Notes under the pieces: model-generated
Database searches by the model: none
Seen by the model: the letters and a program-made list of their open reading frames with translations, nothing else
Told to the model about the DNA's origin: nothing
Shown here: positions 7,301 through 18,852 of the stretch, piece by piece
Layout: the number at the start of each line of letters is the position of its first letter
Numbering within the stretch: position 1 is the stretch's first letter
Program-made: the position numbers and the translations under genes
Virus record (IMG/VR): IMGVR_UViG_2695420421_000005
Length of the DNA stretch: 30,231 nt
Strand: one strand, 5' to 3'
Source: a virus
Taxonomy: Duplodnaviria > Heunggongvirae > Uroviricota > Caudoviricetes

Positions 7301-8320
7301 CCCTTTTCCTTCTGTGGCTGATTTCCGGTCATTATCCAGTGCGCAGGTGATTTTTGCCGCCGGGTACATGTTTACCAGTTGTTCCACAACATGAACCATG
7401 TTGTTAGCGGATACAGCGACAACCACAGCGTCAAAGCGTTTATCTTTTTTCGTGGCAAGCCAGATGGATGCACCAGTAGCAAAACCTTCTGTAACAGCGA
7501 TGTTTTGCGCCCCTTTCAGCTCACCGATAACAAAGCAGGCACCGACGAAATCGCCGCTGGTTACTGCGCTGGTCTGGTATTTCCCACCTTGTTTGTCGAT
7601 TCGCTGCCAACCCACAATACGACCATCGTAACGACCGTCCAGGTGAGCCAGAGGGATAGCCATATATGTGGTTGGCCCCCGGTTCCATTTCGCACTGTCG
7701 TGACTGGTCACGCGACGCACATCACATGAACTAAAAACGTCACGAATACCTTTTTTAATCGCATATGGCCATGAGCCGTCTTCTGCAGGAGCATGTTCCC
7801 ACGCGCTGTGGAATGCCAGCCATCCCAGCAAACGTTCATGGTCCATTTGGTTGTTTTTCAGGTCATTAATTCGTTTTTGTTCTTCACGGCGACGACGTGC
7901 TTCGGCCTGACGTTTTATTCTTGCCCGTTCTTCTTCCGGTTGTGCGACCACGGTCGCATTATTCCGTTGTTGCTCACGGCGATATTCAGAAAACAGGAAG
8001 GAGAAACCGCTCCATGAGCCAGCATCGCTGCCTTTATGGACGAAGTTAATGAACGGGTAATCAATCCCTTTGCTGTGTTCCAGCCGGGAGTAAATTTCTA
8101 CGCGTCCTTTGAGGCTCTTTTCGAGAGCTTCTGGAGATGTTTTATTGTATGAAGAGTAACGCTCAACACCCCCGCGAGGGTTGAGTTGGATGTTGTCGGA
8201 ACAGGCAGACCAGTTGATACCAGCCATCTGTGCCAGCTCGGTTAGTTCATCCCGTGCTGCTTCAATTAGCGAGAACGGATCGCTGCCAAAGCGATCCGCA
8301 TAGAAATCGTTTAATGTCAT
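4325..8320 (-). CDS. repA: Replication protein RepA (primase-helicase), 1331 aa
   Basis: Size and position match N15 RepA (~1320 aa); Walker A motif GMGSGKST in the helicase region; sits between the telN side and the cB immunity region as in N15. Confidence 0.93.
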   Translation of the reverse strand: MTLNDFYADRFGSDPFSLIEAARDELTELAQMAGINWSACSDNIQLNPRGGVERYSSYNKTSPEALEKSLKGRVEIYSRLEHSKGIDYPFINFVHKGSDAGSWSGFSFLFSEYRREQQRNNATVVAQPEEERARIKRQAEARRRREEQKRINDLKNNQMDHERLLGWLAFHSAWEHAPAEDGSWPYAIKKGIRDVFSSCDVRRVTSHDSAKWNRGPTTYMAIPLAHLDGRYDGRIVGWQRIDKQGGKYQTSAVTSGDFVGACFVIGELKGAQNIAVTEGFATGASIWLATKKDKRFDAVVVAVSANNMVHVVEQLVNMYPAAKITCALDNDRKSATEGKGNTGLRTGYEILSKFNDVRCVYPTFEDDPQMECSDFNDLHKLRGLRETARQLFATANRLKTGTDLLSLTLNRLKTIKRDNRRTFAKELLRAVDIGMLTCPVPNSPSDLFNMFCIVLREMGLENIYRATVKDHIARRLNKKCRIAQAPRSFSERITDPNKRPQHITYKRFETSVMTDDVLKYVQSLQGIVIVRAGMGSGKSTGLLRPLMHSSERGISVAHRVSLIGGLWEMMTEGKGVKADILHYQDPGYQEMAPYASKLTICINSIVKNCWQPLMRQHDYFGFDEATQGLRAVLSGRAMENPVAVFNTLIDALARTEQHPIMVDADANDLLVDLAELAMKRREELGLPAWLQIHVIELPVDVRNRETGEPIRVFYTEKDRIMTEVVKAVSDGEKIMLATDSSTFAEDVTATLRMHFPGKKFLCVNQKNKPEPEVEAFTNQPKKMVKKYDGLIYSPSISSGVSIEQKHFDRHFGMFCGEVVPSDAVQMLRRDRTAKEFIIGFDKARAKRETDPQKIERAFAQALLATAGMNGELTDVIFDGDRISMGVANTDFTRMKIKAAAIEATARNDYASNMICIMHSDGYKVSPLGTDYAANDIGKDLRKEARDIVWEQTLDLHLNTETPQESEREELLKKRALTLEEQAKLVRWDIENELKLPVEEGTLKFYFDGARDKVRRYETMLLDEVTARRYDREEAAINFTYAYRQAGQWQYFVVTAMTREQADDVFKTKFPGIIDHKVKATPTVEVGARGFYALKSATLRQYFIDCGINPETMTGEATQERLKFARDNLMTAERRDLLNNVLHIGGFMTPKGKPKVPEALFKNICDSLGLKTGKRRGRDGDKRPTLRFVEPESAAFMLDILVQRQKDGLTLKTRKAEKTAIEMDRDLDLNIYMDDKTRSTNEQVQNAPHSVISEALAVLPVAVPESWAMSALSGEELATMSSWSSTSIAMTFASLYLTEFMDHLSSNELRRLREYITGNSSCSYEEQGAFYG
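7943..7958. repeat. sopC-like centromere-type inverted repeat TGCGACC-AC-GGTCGCA (copy 1, inside repA coding sequence)
   Basis: 7-bp inverted arms with 2-bp spacer, same architecture as the F sopC core TGGGACC-AC-GGTCCCA; five copies in this window. Confidence 0.5.
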
Positions 8321-10182: not shown

Positions 10183-10428
10183 ATGTTCAGGAAACCGTCG
10201 AAGCCAGAATTAAGGTATTCGGGGGTAAGAAATGAATATGTTATCTGGTGTCCAACTTGTGGTTACAGGACACGACCAGATAGTAATAAGCAGTCTGTAA
10301 TTGCCGATTGGTATTTATCAAATCAGCCAGGTAATAAGCATATAGAAAATCTTTGGATTAAGCGTTACTTGGAAATCAGAGAGGGTGCGACCGTGGTCGC
10401 ACAAGAAAATGAAAATAACGCCATTTAA
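10183..10428 (+). CDS. Small zinc-ribbon-like protein, possibly Lar-family restriction alleviation protein (81 aa)
   Basis: CPTCG plus VIADWYLS resembles the Lar-family CPFCG...AI.AWN pattern, but only one CxxC is present; start at the internal ATG after the upstream stop. Confidence 0.4.
   Translation: MFRKPSKPELRYSGVRNEYVIWCPTCGYRTRPDSNKQSVIADWYLSNQPGNKHIENLWIKRYLEIREGATVVAQENENNAI
10386..10401. repeat. sopC-like inverted repeat TGCGACC-GT-GGTCGCA (copy 2, within the 3' end of the Lar-like ORF)
   Basis: Same 7-2-7 inverted repeat as the other copies. Confidence 0.5.
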
Positions 10429-14087: not shown

Positions 14088-14306
14088 ATGGTATTAGATT
14101 CAATGACTGAAGCACCTGTATCAACTCTTGAAGAACTCGGATCAAACCTAAAAGACATCGACGCCGTTTTGGATCTGGTTAGCGTTGCTCTGGCTTCTCC
14201 AGAAGCCAGCTTGCATCTTGGCGAGATTTCACGACTTGTTAGTATGTCGCGGGAGATTGCTCAGAATTGCCAACAAGTTATTGCTGTTGAGTGTTTACAT
14301 CATTGA
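14088..14306 (+). CDS. Small acidic protein (72 aa; alternative start at 14103), candidate SOS-regulated antirepressor
   Basis: First ORF downstream of the LexA box; product assignment is inference by analogy with the N15 LexA-controlled antirepressor. Confidence 0.5.
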   Translation: MVLDSMTEAPVSTLEELGSNLKDIDAVLDLVSVALASPEASLHLGEISRLVSMSREIAQNCQQVIAVECLHH

Positions 14307-14349
14307 TATACACCCCGCCCTTCTGGACGGGGTAGCGAAAAGGGTCTAA

Positions 14350-14637
14350 TCAATAGACGGCATTAATATTAATCGTTGCACCGCATGCTTGGGCATATTT
14401 TGATAAAGTTTTCATGCTTGCCCCTAAAGGATTGCTTTCCAGGCGGCTGATAGCTGACGGGCGCAATCCCATTCGTTCAGCCAGAGCTGACTTCGTTAAA
14501 CCTGCTCTTTCCCTCATTTCGTATAACATTTCGACCATCTCCAGCTCTTTATCGGCCTCTTCATATCCTTTGATGGCTTCTGGAGTGTTGAGAAGTTTTT
14601 CTTTTACTTCGTTAAACGGGATGCCTTTCGCTTTCAT
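14350..14637 (-). CDS. HTH XRE-family antitoxin (HigA-like), 95 aa
   Basis: HTH segment LTKSALAERMGLRPSAISRLE; start overlaps the toxin stop by 1 nt; toxin-first gene order typical of higBA. Confidence 0.85.
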   Translation of the reverse strand: MKAKGIPFNEVKEKLLNTPEAIKGYEEADKELEMVEMLYEMRERAGLTKSALAERMGLRPSAISRLESNPLGASMKTLSKYAQACGATININAVY

Positions 14638-14948
14638 CAGTTCATCTCCTTCAGGCGAGTTCTGGCGATTTCGATAGCCTTCACCGGTGTTTTCTGTGTC
14701 TTTTTTACAAATGCATGCAATAGATAAATTTCGTTACCAGTCGCGTAGGCGTACAGCGTTCTTGCGATGTTTTTATCCCCTACTCGTAGTTCAAAAAGCC
14801 CTCCACCTATTACACGGCTATGGGGCATCTTCAGTTTGTTGCCTTCTTTCTCCAGTCGCTCAATTAATCTGGTCATGCGACCTCGCAAATCATCTGGTAG
14901 TTCAAGCAGTTCATCCAGTGCTGCAGGGTGGGTTATCACGTTAAACAT
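14637..14948 (-). CDS. RelE/ParE-superfamily toxin (HigB/Gp49-like), 103 aa
   Basis: Conserved IGGGLFELRVGDKNIARTLYAY core typical of HigB/Gp49-like toxins; GGAGG 9 nt upstream of ATG. Confidence 0.85.
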   Translation of the reverse strand: MFNVITHPAALDELLELPDDLRGRMTRLIERLEKEGNKLKMPHSRVIGGGLFELRVGDKNIARTLYAYATGNEIYLLHAFVKKTQKTPVKAIEIARTRLKEMN

Positions 14949-15006
14949 ATTATAGCCTCCATATCCATAAAATACACCAAAACAAGAAAACAGCGCAAAT
15001 TAAAAA

Positions 15007-15024
15007 TTTCACTAAAAAGTGAAA
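15007..15024. promoter_or_regulatory. Palindrome TTTCACT-AAAA-AGTGAAA upstream of the toxin-antitoxin operon (candidate autoregulatory operator)
   Basis: Perfect 7-bp inverted arms ~60 bp upstream of the toxin start on the transcribed side. Confidence 0.45.
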
Positions 15025-15113
15025 AATAACACTGGATGTGTTCGTTTGGCAGAGTTACAGTTCGTGTCATTGAGGGGCAATAACCAACTAACTATATGAA
15101 TTTGGAGGATATT

Positions 15114-15335
15114 ATGAATTATCAAGGTAACGAAAAAATGCGCGACGACGTTGCGGAGATAGCTAACGAACTGTATGAGTTGTGGCAGAAGGTTGAACGT
15201 TTCGAAAAGGAATATGGTTTCAACAGTACCAACCTAGCAGACCGACTGGCTGGTCGCTTAGTTGGGACTATGGGGCCAAAACTGGCTGAGTTGAACCGCT
15301 TTATGGCTGATGTTGATTTCCAGTTTCAAGATTGA
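15114..15335 (+). CDS. Hypothetical protein (73 aa from ATG 15114)
   Basis: GGAGG 6 nt upstream of the internal ATG; no family recognised. Confidence 0.6.
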   Translation: MNYQGNEKMRDDVAEIANELYELWQKVERFEKEYGFNSTNLADRLAGRLVGTMGPKLAELNRFMADVDFQFQD

Positions 15336-15576: not shown

Positions 15577-15582
15577 AAACTG

Positions 15583-15598
15583 TGCGACCACGGTCGCA
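15583..15598. repeat. sopC-like inverted repeat TGCGACC-AC-GGTCGCA (copy 3, intergenic)
   Basis: Same motif, 7 nt after the stop of the upstream gene. Confidence 0.5.
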
Positions 15599-15685
15599 CA
15601 GCACAAAAACGAAAAAGCTTGGCAAAATGACGGTTTTTAGTTATTGTTTTGTTAAGTTGGGTTTTTTGTACCCAACAGCCAACAA

Positions 15686-15724: not shown

Positions 15725-15752
15725 CGCAGGACAAGTTGCAGCTTGTCCTGCG
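15725..15752. repeat. Strong 11-bp stem hairpin CGCAGGACAAG-TTGCAG-CTTGTCCTGCG
   Basis: Perfect inverted repeat without a following T-run, upstream of the methyltransferase gene. Confidence 0.5.
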
Positions 15753-15795: not shown

Positions 15796-15809
15796 GCGAT
15801 GCGCATCGC
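15796..15809. promoter_or_regulatory. Perfect 14-bp palindrome GCGATGCGCATCGC ~35 bp upstream of the methyltransferase start
   Basis: Self-complementary sequence read directly; function unknown. Confidence 0.4.
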
Positions 15810-15843
15810 CGGGTTAGCTTACCCAGGCAAAAAAATAATAGCT

Positions 15844-16920
15844 ATGTTCAAAACCACTAATATTCATGGCGCACAACTCGTTTGCGCAGATTCTCTGCAA
15901 TTTATCAAAACCATCCCTGATAACTCGGTCAATTTGATTGCAACAGACCCACCATACTTCGGCGTAAAGGCTAACGCATGGGATAACCAGTGGGATAGCG
16001 ATGCTGACTTTTTGGGGTGGATTGACGAATTTTTGGCAGAATTTTGGCGGATATTGGCCCCTAATGGCAGCCTGTATATGTTTACCGGCTCTCGCCTTGC
16101 GTCAAAAATTGAATTATTAACTCGCGACCGTTTCAATGTTCTGAACCATATTATTTGGGCTAAACCCAGTGGTATGTGGCGCGGTTGTCATAAAGAAAGT
16201 TTAAGGGCTTATTTTCCTGCTACTGAAAGAATATTATTTGCAGAGCATTACGGCGCGTCAGGTTATGCTAAAGGTCAGTCAGGTTATGCTTCAAAATGTG
16301 CAGATTTAAGAAAAAATATTTTTTCTCCACTAATTGATGCTTTTTCGCTGGCTCGCCGTCAGTTAGATATATCAGCCGCAGACATTAATTCAGCGACAGG
16401 AAAGCAGATGTGTTCACACTGGTTTTCTTATTCGCAGTGGCGGCTTCCATCATTAATTGATTTTAATAAACTATGCGAATTATTTCGCAGGAAGGCAGAT
16501 TCACTCGGTGTCCCGTGTCCATATCCTTTTAATGTTGATTATTCAGAACATGAAAAGCGTTATAGCGATCTGAAATTGCATTATGAGGAAGTAAAGAAGC
16601 AGTATGATGATTTGAAGGCTCAGTATGAAAATTTACGCCGTCCATTTCATGTTACTGCTGATGTACCTTATACCGATGTATGGGAGTTTCCTCCTGTGCA
16701 ATATTATCCTGGCAAGCACCCATGTGAAAAACCTGCAGCGATGATGGAACATATTATAAAGAGTAGTTCACGCCCCGGAGATATCGTTGCCGATTTCTTT
16801 ATGGGATCAGGCTCAACTATTAAAGCTGCGCTGAAGTTAGGACGTCAGGCAATAGGTATTGAGATTGAGGGCGAACGTTATCTTCAGACAGTTGATGAAG
16901 TGAAAAAGTTATTTGAGTAA
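15844..16920 (+). CDS. DNA methyltransferase, beta-class N6-adenine/N4-cytosine type (358 aa)
   Basis: N-terminal DPPY motif (LIATDPPYFGV) and C-terminal AdoMet-binding FFMGSGST in beta-class order; the ORF-track start at 15799 runs through the palindrome, the ATG at 15844 is more likely. Confidence 0.85.
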   Translation: MFKTTNIHGAQLVCADSLQFIKTIPDNSVNLIATDPPYFGVKANAWDNQWDSDADFLGWIDEFLAEFWRILAPNGSLYMFTGSRLASKIELLTRDRFNVLNHIIWAKPSGMWRGCHKESLRAYFPATERILFAEHYGASGYAKGQSGYASKCADLRKNIFSPLIDAFSLARRQLDISAADINSATGKQMCSHWFSYSQWRLPSLIDFNKLCELFRRKADSLGVPCPYPFNVDYSEHEKRYSDLKLHYEEVKKQYDDLKAQYENLRRPFHVTADVPYTDVWEFPPVQYYPGKHPCEKPAAMMEHIIKSSSRPGDIVADFFMGSGSTIKAALKLGRQAIGIEIEGERYLQTVDEVKKLFE

Positions 16921-18592: not shown

Positions 18593-18608
18593 TGCGACCG
18601 TGGTCGCA
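18593..18608. repeat. sopC-like inverted repeat TGCGACC-GT-GGTCGCA (copy 4)
   Basis: Same motif, immediately left of direct repeat A. Confidence 0.5.
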
Positions 18609-18795: not shown

Positions 18796-18812
18796 GCATG
18801 TATTCAGGAGCG

Positions 18813-18828
18813 TGCGACCGTGGTCGCA
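18813..18828. repeat. sopC-like inverted repeat TGCGACC-GT-GGTCGCA (copy 5)
   Basis: Same motif, immediately right of direct repeat A and 25 bp upstream of the gene X start. Confidence 0.5.
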
Positions 18829-18852
18829 CGGTATCTTTGTCAGGAGGTTTTG

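Follow-up and report, generated by a model that had tools for sequence, protein, structure and literature searches.

The window, by which we mean the whole 30,231-nt stretch of DNA analysed here (IMG/VR record IMGVR_UViG_2695420421_000005), is an N15-like linear phage-plasmid of E. coli, and it carries on its minus strand a gene pair that is almost certainly a type II toxin-antitoxin module, the orthologue of gp49 ("Tad") and gp48 ("Ata") of phage N15. Taken as a whole, the pair is very likely an addiction cassette of the N15 type, probably autoregulated, that stabilises the linear plasmid-prophage. The module is real but ordinary: its type has already been described in the literature, and this exact pair is already annotated by PGAP, which labels it in E. 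coli genomes as a type II toxin-antitoxin toxin and a helix-turn-helix protein. It marks the replicon as a carrier of an N15-type addiction module, with little import beyond correct annotation, and would help to explain the stable inheritance of linear plasmid-prophages of about 46 kb in E. coli. A modestly new element is that a sequence entered as a terminator in the N15 record evolves like a dyad operator, travelling and co-varying with the antitoxin.

The toxin gene (103 aa, ATG start) lies at 14637..14948 and the antitoxin gene (95 aa, XRE-type helix-turn-helix) at 14350..14637, both on the minus strand, as read from the ORF list and the sequence. In the motif TGATG at 14635-14639 the TGA of the toxin and the ATG of the antitoxin have one base in common, so that the 1-nt overlap and the toxin-first order proposed in the initial annotation are correct. 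A Shine-Dalgarno sequence GGAGG precedes the toxin (14956..14960, minus strand) and does not vary when the locus is aligned with N15, phiKO2 and YDC107_1. Both ORFs are full length, and their lengths equal those of the N15 pair (103 and 95 aa). The arrangement of a toxin gene followed on the same strand by a gene for an XRE helix-turn-helix partner is present in nearly all the relatives examined, the exceptions being one distant locus (L105) without an antitoxin ORF and two Legionella loci in which the overlap is replaced by a 1-nt gap.

The toxin matches the Pfam family Gp49 (PF05973), which takes its name from phage N15 gp49, over profile positions 1-90 of 90 (E 2.5e-29, 101.6 bits for a cut-off of 23.9), and matches PHROG 2523 with E 2.6e-43. 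It is 92% identical to N15 gp49 over its full length, with 8 substitutions. Gp49 is the sole Pfam family found at E <= 0.01; the families of the Rts1 and E. coli K-12 HigB toxins (PF05015, PF09907) gave no match, nor did any NCBIfam model. The description of the pair as higBA-like thus holds in the loose sense in which the name is used for the HigB proteins of Mycobacterium tuberculosis and Streptococcus pneumoniae, but the precise family is Gp49/Tad-Ata and not that of Rts1 or K-12 HigB. Among proteins of known structure, the toxin matches by sequence S. pneumoniae HigB (6AF3, E 5.5e-5) and M. tuberculosis HigB1 (7NBU/7AWK, E 0.035). Its residues E53, R55, N60, F80, K82, Q85 and K86 align to E66, R68, N73, F93, K95, Q98 and K99 of HigB-TAC, the mechanism and catalytic-pocket residues of which have been described (PMC9098466). 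In an 11-sequence alignment of the family, E53, R55, F80 and K82 are invariant and N60, Q85 and K86 nearly so (at least 90%); the equivalent of HigB-TAC R77 is offset by one column (invariant R63), and that of R61 is a glycine. An AlphaFold2 single-sequence model of the toxin was too poor to use (mean pLDDT 45); at this low confidence it has the same order of elements as HigB-TAC, namely helix, helix, four strands and a long C-terminal helix. Toxins with the PF_gp49 domain are ribosome-dependent mRNases (PMC11980606).

The antitoxin belongs to the XRE type, as the initial annotation had it, with a match to HTH_3/XRE over residues 38-88 (E 1.6e-12) and to PHROG 1373, "transcriptional regulator" (E 3.4e-36). 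It is 86% identical to N15 gp48 over its full length (13 substitutions). Its matches in the PDB include S. pneumoniae HigA (6AF3_B, residues 9-90) and M. tuberculosis HigA2, and a search of NCBIfam returned only helix-turn-helix models below threshold.

The replicon that carries the pair had been taken for a linear plasmid-prophage, and we found the corresponding signs in the window: a telomere palindrome at 10-33, dispersed centromere-like palindromes, a protelomerase-sized ORF of 635 aa at 213-2120, a RepA-sized ORF of 1331 aa, and a nucleotide identity of 96-98% to Ravinvirus phages. The closest E. coli plasmid encodes a protelomerase, CyRepA1, Cro/CI and Q. The neighbours of the pair (gp47, gp50, gp51 and a methyltransferase) are as in N15, phiKO2 and YDC107_1. 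The pair was found in 16 of 5426 complete E. coli genomes and was plasmid-borne every time; the nucleotide identity of the locus is 97-99.9% in the E. coli plasmids listed and at least 90% in all 16. At the protein level 18 IMG/VR loci (L004-L020, L055) and phages PhiR46_1 and YDC107_1 have a toxin 100% identical to that of the window; these two phages are 94% identical in nucleotides to the window across the toxin-antitoxin locus.

Upstream of the pair, at 15007..15024, stands the palindrome TTTCACT-AAAA-AGTGAAA announced by the initial annotation (hereafter O1), whose two arms of 7 nt match perfectly and are separated by 4 nt. Its distance to the toxin start codon, which lies downstream, is 59-76 nt, and it is placed inside an AT-rich intergenic region of 165 nt. 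Judged on this single sequence, it is not beyond chance: when the 165-nt region was simulated with a first-order Markov model, 14% of the trials contained an inverted repeat whose 7-nt arms matched perfectly, and a search of the whole window with up to 3 mismatches found 1 site against 1.73 expected. Its reality rests on comparative evidence rather than on the window. The palindrome is conserved in N15, phiKO2 and YDC107_1, and across the relatives it starts 70-78 nt upstream of the toxin ATG, mostly at -76 to -78; in a small number of diverged loci the value is -70 to -75. Symmetric changes affect both arms among relatives (CAC/GTG, CTC/GAG, CTA/TAG, ATC/GAT). In 22 distinct dyad variants 91.6% of cells are paired, and both arms change at 3 of the 7 positions; the covariation score is 0.153 against 0.061 +/- 0.023 in shuffles, a value reached by none of 500, and it exceeds the slide controls as well.

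Two further comparisons tie the palindrome to the cassette. Four loci (L048, L074, L077, L079) have no gp50 or gp51 homologue, yet a palindrome of the same architecture stands upstream of their toxin ATG (its position, determined for three of them, is -70 to -78); the dyad is thus maintained with the cassette. The type of dyad also tracks the recognition helix of the antitoxin, the helices SAISRLE, SAITRLE, SGINSLM and SALNRLE each coming with a dyad type of their own, a correlation that is no independent test because both follow phylogeny. In more distant relatives the -10 is overlapped by one to three copies of a palindrome of their own, whose spacers range from 0 to 6 nt. In roughly one in three of the distinct variants seen in nature, a single arm carries a mismatch while the antitoxin is unchanged (for example L005, L006, L011, L023, L033-35 and L072). 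The fixed distance, the symmetric changes of the arms, the tracking of the recognition helix and the retention without the neighbouring genes lead us to consider that the palindrome is, on balance, probably the operator of the antitoxin. A candidate second operator, O2 (14970-14990, 16 of 22 matches to O1), was rejected: lineage-matched permutations across 12 diverse loci gave no significant result, the observed resemblance being reached in a fraction of 0.16 of them when the 7-nt arm was scored and of 0.09 when arm and spacer were scored together, so that it mostly reflects a common T-rich composition. Locus L048 carries at the O2 position, between the -35 and the -10, an exact duplication of 11 nt.

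The alignment of relatives suggests a proximal promoter on the minus strand, with a putative -35 TTTGCG at 14994..14999 and a putative -10 TGTATT at 14971..14976. The hexamers at the same place are TTGTGT and TATATT in N15, TTGACA-17-TATATT in L048, TTGACG-17-TATATT in L053 and TTTACA-18-TATAAT in L049. In the clade of the window a G occupies position 2 of the -10 hexamer, where N15 has the conserved A, and expression may therefore be low; a consensus promoter scan did not call the proximal -35/-10 in the window. Most toxin-antitoxin operators sit over the -35 or the -10; the dyad here would lie 7 nt upstream of the -35, roughly between -43 and -60 if counted from the predicted transcription start. 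A relaxed scan of the minus strand from 14600 to 15113 gave a single match, a distal promoter-like site at 15023..15052, with a -35 CTGCCA at 15047-15052, an 18-nt spacer and a TG-extended -10 TATTTT at 15023-15028. Were it used, transcription might begin within the palindrome, and the dyad would cover +1. The only match of the consensus scan (TTCATA-16-TATAGT, 15118-15091, minus strand) was discarded, being not conserved in N15 or phiKO2, with two such matches expected by chance. Dziewit et al. (2007) reportedly placed another promoter ahead of the antitoxin gene; in the window the relaxed scan gave no promoter within the toxin gene.

Alternatively, the palindrome may fold into a hairpin, in RNA or in DNA, that works on the toxin strand as a weak intrinsic terminator or as an insulator, rather than serving as an operator for a protein. 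This we consider rather unlikely. It has in its favour that the N15 record labels the same sequence (40551-40571) "stem_loop, putative rho-indep. transcription terminator", that a T run, TTTTTAATTT, comes after the hairpin on the minus strand, and that a 61-nt region around it folds at -11.5 kcal/mol (z = -2.9 versus shuffles). Covariation of both arms suits a hairpin as well as a dyad, and the variants TTTCGCT (L006/L014/L029) and GGTGAAA (L012) would still be able to form G-U pairs. However, the stem comprises 7 pairs with 2 G-C, and a terminator scan of 14200-15200 finds none. Genes 50, 51 and 52 all run the other way, and on the toxin strand no gene is read towards the hairpin, which leaves it without an evident transcript to end; should the proximal promoter be the real one, the toxin-antitoxin transcript would not include the hairpin either. 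The multiple copies over the -10 in distant relatives, with their variable spacers, are operator-like, and the tracking of the recognition helix by the dyad argues in the same direction.

With the palindrome read as an operator, the following scheme can be proposed. The pair would be co-transcribed leftward, toxin first, probably with translational coupling through TGATG. Given its homology to the HigB proteins of S. pneumoniae and M. tuberculosis (HigB-TAC), the toxin would most likely enter the ribosomal A site, cleave mRNA and stop translation, and the antitoxin would bind and neutralise it. A dimer of the XRE antitoxin would most likely bind TTTCACT-N4-AGTGAAA upstream of the promoter, leading to autoregulation of the operon. 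In a daughter cell that has lost the plasmid-prophage, the antitoxin, presumably labile, would decay and the toxin would arrest or kill the cell. Such killing of plasmid-free cells would stabilise the low-copy linear plasmid, alongside the partition system.

The post-segregational killing put forward in the initial annotation agrees with what is reported for the N15 orthologues, 92% and 86% identical to our toxin and antitoxin: the accounts given in PMC2701414, PMC5906591 and PMC3581621 of the work of Dziewit et al. (2007, J Bacteriol 189:1983) present gp49-gp48 as the plasmid-stabilising "tad-ata" system, whose toxin is reported to be toxic by itself and to be neutralised by its antitoxin. 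The N15 pair has been assigned to the Tad-Ata type (COG4679/DUF891), related to RelE (PMC2701414), the Gp49-domain toxins are placed in toxin-first modules (PMC5906591), and the mycobacterial higBA is said to resemble "the gp49-gp48 locus of N15" (PMC3581621). Deletion of the homologous pair of the SXT element left that element stable (PMC2654960), so that stabilisation of a test plasmid is no proof of a role in the native replicon.

The same initial annotation mentioned a possible action in phage defence, and the main benefit of the pair could be abortive infection or competition with related phage-plasmids, post-segregational killing being secondary. A HigB of the Gp49 family acts in abortive infection within an E. 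coli toxin-antitoxin-chaperone module (PMC11980606), and the diversity of dyads and helices among co-circulating N15-like elements could reflect insulation between competitors. PADLOC matched the toxin to NsnC (E 2.6e-7) and the antitoxin at the level of the helix-turn-helix. Yet the NsnC match is partial, spanning 54 residues (profile positions 229-282 of 293), and that of the antitoxin is to a generic helix-turn-helix, so no defence system is recognised; a chaperone gene or other sensor is absent beside the pair, and the sole published function of the N15 orthologue is replicon stabilisation. We thus regard defence as the main benefit as improbable, and any part played by the pair in phage defence as conjectural. 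One might further speculate, with little confidence, that the cassettes are insulated "immunity types", in which the dyad and the recognition helix would have co-diversified to the point that elements sharing a cell or competing with each other could neither cross-regulate nor cross-neutralise. Among the N15-like phage-plasmids and chromosomal relatives the types are CAC/SAISRLE, CTC/SAITRLE, CTA/SGINSLM and ATC/SALNRLE. If this were true, the module would be a tool of competition between phage-plasmids, beyond its stabilising role. Apparent intermediates or chimeric arms occur in L011 and L059/L072.

It is unlikely that the palindrome is unrelated to the pair, whether as a control site of gp50-gp51, as the site of another phage regulator or as a chance repeat. 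The 165-nt intergenic region is divergent and common to the pair and gene 50, the conserved block runs on towards gene 50, the gp51 of phiKO2 is annotated as a winged helix-turn-helix protein, and the frequency of such a repeat in the Markov simulation leaves some room for chance. Against this, the four loci without gp50 and gp51 homologues keep the palindrome, and the covariation exceeds both the shuffle and the slide controls. Moreover, no second copy is present in the 30-kb window, so that a global phage repressor does not have its operator here. That the module is decaying or silent in the lineage of the window is highly improbable: the departures of its -35 and -10 from those of N15 and of the distant relatives and the silence of the consensus scan at the proximal site speak for it, but the ORFs are full length, the catalytic-pocket residues are intact, and the identity of the toxin across loci and phages and of the locus across plasmids indicates purifying selection.

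We finally compared the addiction cassette with known systems. The phd-doc system of P1 stabilises a low-copy plasmid-prophage by post-segregational killing (PMC11652158), a role that the pair of the window would have in common with it; its proteins are unrelated, its antitoxin comes first and its toxin has a different mechanism. The HigBA systems of Rts1 and E. coli K-12 (PF05015/PF09907) have in common with the pair the reverse gene order, a toxin of the RelE superfamily and a helix-turn-helix antitoxin, and they are autoregulated through promoter palindromes (PMC11980606). They differ from it by the Pfam family of the toxin and by operators that lie over the -35/-10, whereas the dyad of the window is upstream of the predicted -35. 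M. tuberculosis HigB-TAC/HigA (Rv1955-Rv1956) and S. pneumoniae HigBA are alike in having a Gp49 toxin, a toxin-first order, an XRE helix-turn-helix antitoxin and catalytic-pocket residues that align, and a ribosome-dependent cleavage at A-site codons is the mechanism to be expected; their similarity to the pair is distant (E 5.5e-5 and 0.035), and the window is without a SecB-like chaperone gene. The nearest counterpart is gp49-gp48 of N15. The element of the window belongs to a different Ravinvirus lineage, near YDC107_1 and PhiR46_1, and its putative -35/-10 appear weaker than those of N15 (TTTGCG/TGTATT versus TTGTGT/TATATT), but the two cassettes are alike in the lengths of their genes, in the 1-nt overlap, in the neighbouring genes, in the palindrome and its distance, and in the kind of replicon that carries them.

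The gene pair in the window is closely orthologous to a system that has been named and published and is annotated as a matter of routine; as such it is already known. On the minus strand, a toxin ORF of 103 aa (14948 to 14637, ATG start), preceded by GGAGG in the Shine-Dalgarno position (14956-14960), is followed by an antitoxin ORF of 95 aa (14637 to 14350), with one base common to the toxin TGA and the antitoxin ATG. The toxin matches the whole Gp49 profile of Pfam (PF05973; E 2.5e-29, 101.6 bits against a cut-off of 23.9) and no other Pfam family at E <= 0.01, and the antitoxin is an XRE-type helix-turn-helix protein (HTH_3, E 1.6e-12). They fall in phrog_2523 and phrog_1373 ('transcriptional regulator'), respectively; a search of NCBIfam found no model matching the toxin. 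Among solved structures, the best sequence match of the toxin is S. pneumoniae HigB (6AF3, E 5.5e-5), followed by M. tuberculosis HigB1 (7NBU, 7AWK); for the antitoxin, matches are HipB, HigA2 of M. tuberculosis and HigA of S. pneumoniae.

Gap-free and at equal length, the toxin is 92% identical to gp49 of phage N15 and the antitoxin 86% identical to N15 gp48, and the neighbours are also those of N15 (gp47, gp50, gp51 and a methyltransferase). It is from N15 gp49 that the Pfam family takes its name. The N15 pair was treated by Dziewit et al. in 2007 (J Bacteriol 189:1983); going by the title of that article, N15 reportedly encodes a stabilising system of toxin and antitoxin with homology to tad-ata of pAMI2. 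RefSeq names exactly these two proteins as a 'type II toxin-antitoxin system RelE/ParE family toxin' and an HTH protein. The Tad toxins (COG4679/DUF891, 'e.g. gp49 of N15') are RelE relatives with Xre-HTH antitoxin partners (PMC2701414), all studied Gp49 modules have the toxin-first order (PMC5906591), and N15 gp49-gp48 has been called a 'chaperone-less' relative of the mycobacterial higBA pair (PMC3581621). The module is present in 16 of 5426 complete E. coli genomes, and is plasmid-borne in every case. The initial annotation of a toxin-first pair with a 1-nt overlap, an XRE antitoxin and an upstream palindrome holds in its coordinates, and its toxin-antitoxin interpretation was essentially right.

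PF_gp49 toxins are classed among the ribosome-dependent mRNases (PMC11980606). In M. tuberculosis HigB-TAC, which cuts A-site codons between the second and third bases, cryo-EM and mutants define a pocket of K58, E66, R68, N73, R77, F93, K95, Q98 and K99 (PMC9098466). In a HMMER alignment these residues correspond to R45, E53, R55, N60, T64 (with R63 adjacent), F80, K82, Q85 and K86 of the window toxin; among 11 aligned relatives E53, R55, R63, F80 and K82 are invariant, and N60, Q85 and K86 nearly so (90% or more). Ribosome-dependent mRNA cleavage can be inferred for the window toxin by homology. A single-sequence structure model was too poor (pLDDT 45) for the fold to be read.

The window is an N15-like linear plasmid-prophage, as had been proposed, and several lines of evidence lead to this conclusion. 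DNA identity at the locus is 94% with YDC107_1 (genus Ravinvirus) and PhiR46_1, both Escherichia phages, and 77% with phiKO2 of Klebsiella; over the first 12 kb of the window, identity with the two Escherichia phages is 96-98%. The window opens with a perfect 24-bp palindrome, CCCATTATACGCGCGTATAATGGG (10-33), followed by a 635-aa ORF (213-2120), in the region where protelomerase is annotated in YDC107_1 and NZ_LR883007.1, and a 1331-aa ORF follows on the opposite strand. CCCATTATACGCGCGTATAATGGG looks like a telomere-resolution site, and hence the window start like the hairpin end of a linear plasmid; the 21 bases ahead of the dyad centre suggest read-through of the hairpin during assembly. 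The E. coli plasmid record nearest to the window carries annotations for protelomerase, the replication protein CyRepA1, Cro/CI and Q, as well as for lysis genes and head and tail genes of lambda-like type. The 16-bp palindrome TGCGACC(AC/GT)GGTCGCA occurs in five dispersed copies (7943-7958, 10385-10402, 15580-15601, 18593-18608 and 18811-18830), which are probably the scattered centromere sites of a partition system, the equivalent site after gp51 being a 'putative plasmid partitioning site' in the phiKO2 record.

The closest E. coli record (L143; NZ_LR883007.1, 40047-46241) was deposited as a circular 46-kb plasmid, in which the protelomerase-proximal genes are present twice, in inverted orientation, and several genes are frameshifted; this arrangement most likely arose in assembly, by read-through at the hairpin telomere of a replicon that is linear. 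The stretch from gp51 to the methyltransferase gene (15799-16920) has two strong hairpins, GTTGGGTTTTTTGTACCCAAC (15656-15676) and CAGGACAAGTTGCAGCTTGTCCTG (15727-15750), where the N15 and phiKO2 records place a late promoter and a terminator, as would fit Q-type antitermination control. A 72-aa ORF (14088-14306), convergent with the antitoxin gene, matches phrog_6301 (unknown function) and, weakly, phrog_10889 ('anti-repressor', E 1.4e-6), and between the two genes lies an imperfect G+C-rich hairpin, CCCCG...CGGGG (14313-14332), with a T run on neither strand.

Post-segregational killing, which would back up partition of the low-copy linear plasmid, is the best-supported reading of what the pair does: it is the function published for the N15 orthologue and the one that such modules generally serve in phage-plasmids (PMC11652158). 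As a caution, the homologous pair of SXT conferred stability on a test plasmid, but SXT itself was not made less stable by loss of the pair (PMC2654960). A role in defence is possible in principle, as a Gp49-family HigB mediates abortive infection within a three-gene chaperone module (PMC11980606), but a chaperone gene is absent here and PADLOC returned partial domain matches only.

The 165-nt intergenic region, bounded by a divergent gene (15114-15335), contains the perfect palindrome TTTCACT-AAAA-AGTGAAA at 15007-15024, 59-76 nt upstream of the toxin ATG. As a single-sequence feature it is unremarkable: 14% of simulated intergenic regions have an inverted repeat with 7-nt arms, and a dyad search allowing up to 3 mismatches gave 1 match in the window against 1.73 expected. 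The pair is most likely transcribed from TTTGCG-17-TGTATT (14999-14971, minus strand), where N15 has TTGTGT-17-TATATT and relatives TTGACA-17-TATATT, TTGACG-17-TATATT or TTTACA-18-TATAAT. An A at the second position of the -10 hexamer is usually essential; the window clade has G there (14971-14976; TGTATT against TATATT in N15 and most relatives), in all 17 IMG/VR loci that encode an identical toxin and extend far enough upstream (L004-L020; an 18th, L055, does not), and expression of the pair may be lower than in N15. The promoter being downstream of the dyad, the latter lies at roughly -43 to -60, which is unusual for a repressor. Were a distal, weaker site used instead (CTGCCA-18-TATTTT, with a TG upstream), transcription would start within the dyad. 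A candidate for a second operator, degenerate and located over the -10, failed a permutation test.

Comparison of 68 IMG/VR and 70 genome loci encoding toxin relatives was more informative. Wherever toxin identity is at least ~62%, the start of the element precedes the toxin ATG by 70-78 nt (mostly -76 to -78, but -70 to -75 in a few diverged loci). Its core changes jointly on both arms, from TTTCACT/AGTGAAA (N15, the window, Klebsiella phages) to TTTCTCT/AGAGAAA (L074 from Xenorhabdus, L079 from Erwinia), TTTCTAT/ATAGAAA (L052/L075) and TTTATCT/AGATAAA (L056), and the antitoxin recognition helix differs per core type (SAISRLE, SAITRLE, SGINSLM, SALNRLE). Among 22 distinct 22-mers, 91.6% of cells are paired, 3 of 7 positions have changed on both sides, and the covariation score (0.153 versus 0.061 +/- 0.023 in shuffles) was reached by 0 of 500 shuffles and collapses once the partner is shifted by 1-3 columns. 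The element is kept in L048, L074, L077 and L079, all lacking a gp50 or gp51 homologue, and is therefore part of the cassette, not of the divergent operon.

This pattern looks like that of a dimeric HTH operator, and we lean towards the dyad being a putative operator of the antitoxin. The constraint is not strict, since about a third of the distinct natural variants have a one-arm mismatch with an unchanged antitoxin, and operator type and recognition helix alike follow phylogeny. Such mismatches, at about -76, occur in L005, L006, L011, L014, L023, L029, L033-L035, L044, L059, L072 and L073; L059 and L072 join an ATC-type left arm to a CAC-type right arm. Mismatched and mixed-arm variants look like intermediates or recombinants between operator types. 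In the N15 record, exactly the dyad sequence is marked, on the gene-49 strand, as a putative rho-independent terminator; a T run follows the stem and the predicted folding of the region is stronger than that of shuffles (z = -2.9), but the stem has two G-C pairs only, a terminator scan rejected it and no transcription on the toxin strand is directed at it; a hairpin or terminator is unlikely. Any further explanation of the dyad appears slightly less probable still. What is new, if small, is the comparative evidence that the N15 'terminator' evolves as a cassette-linked dyad co-varying with the antitoxin.

More distant relatives have palindromes of their own, of which one to three copies lie directly over the -10. 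Those of Gilliamella have TTATC/GATAA sites, TATCAAATTTGATA among them, and those of Xenorhabdus (L087, L088, L094) and Salinivibrio (L090, L092, L093) have TATCATATATGATA or near variants of it, present one to three times; the recognition helix is a different one in each of these groups. In the latter six cassettes (~42% toxin identity) the promoter-proximal TATCATATATGATA-type copy overlaps the -10, which is the textbook operator layout, whereas the N15 type has a single upstream dyad.
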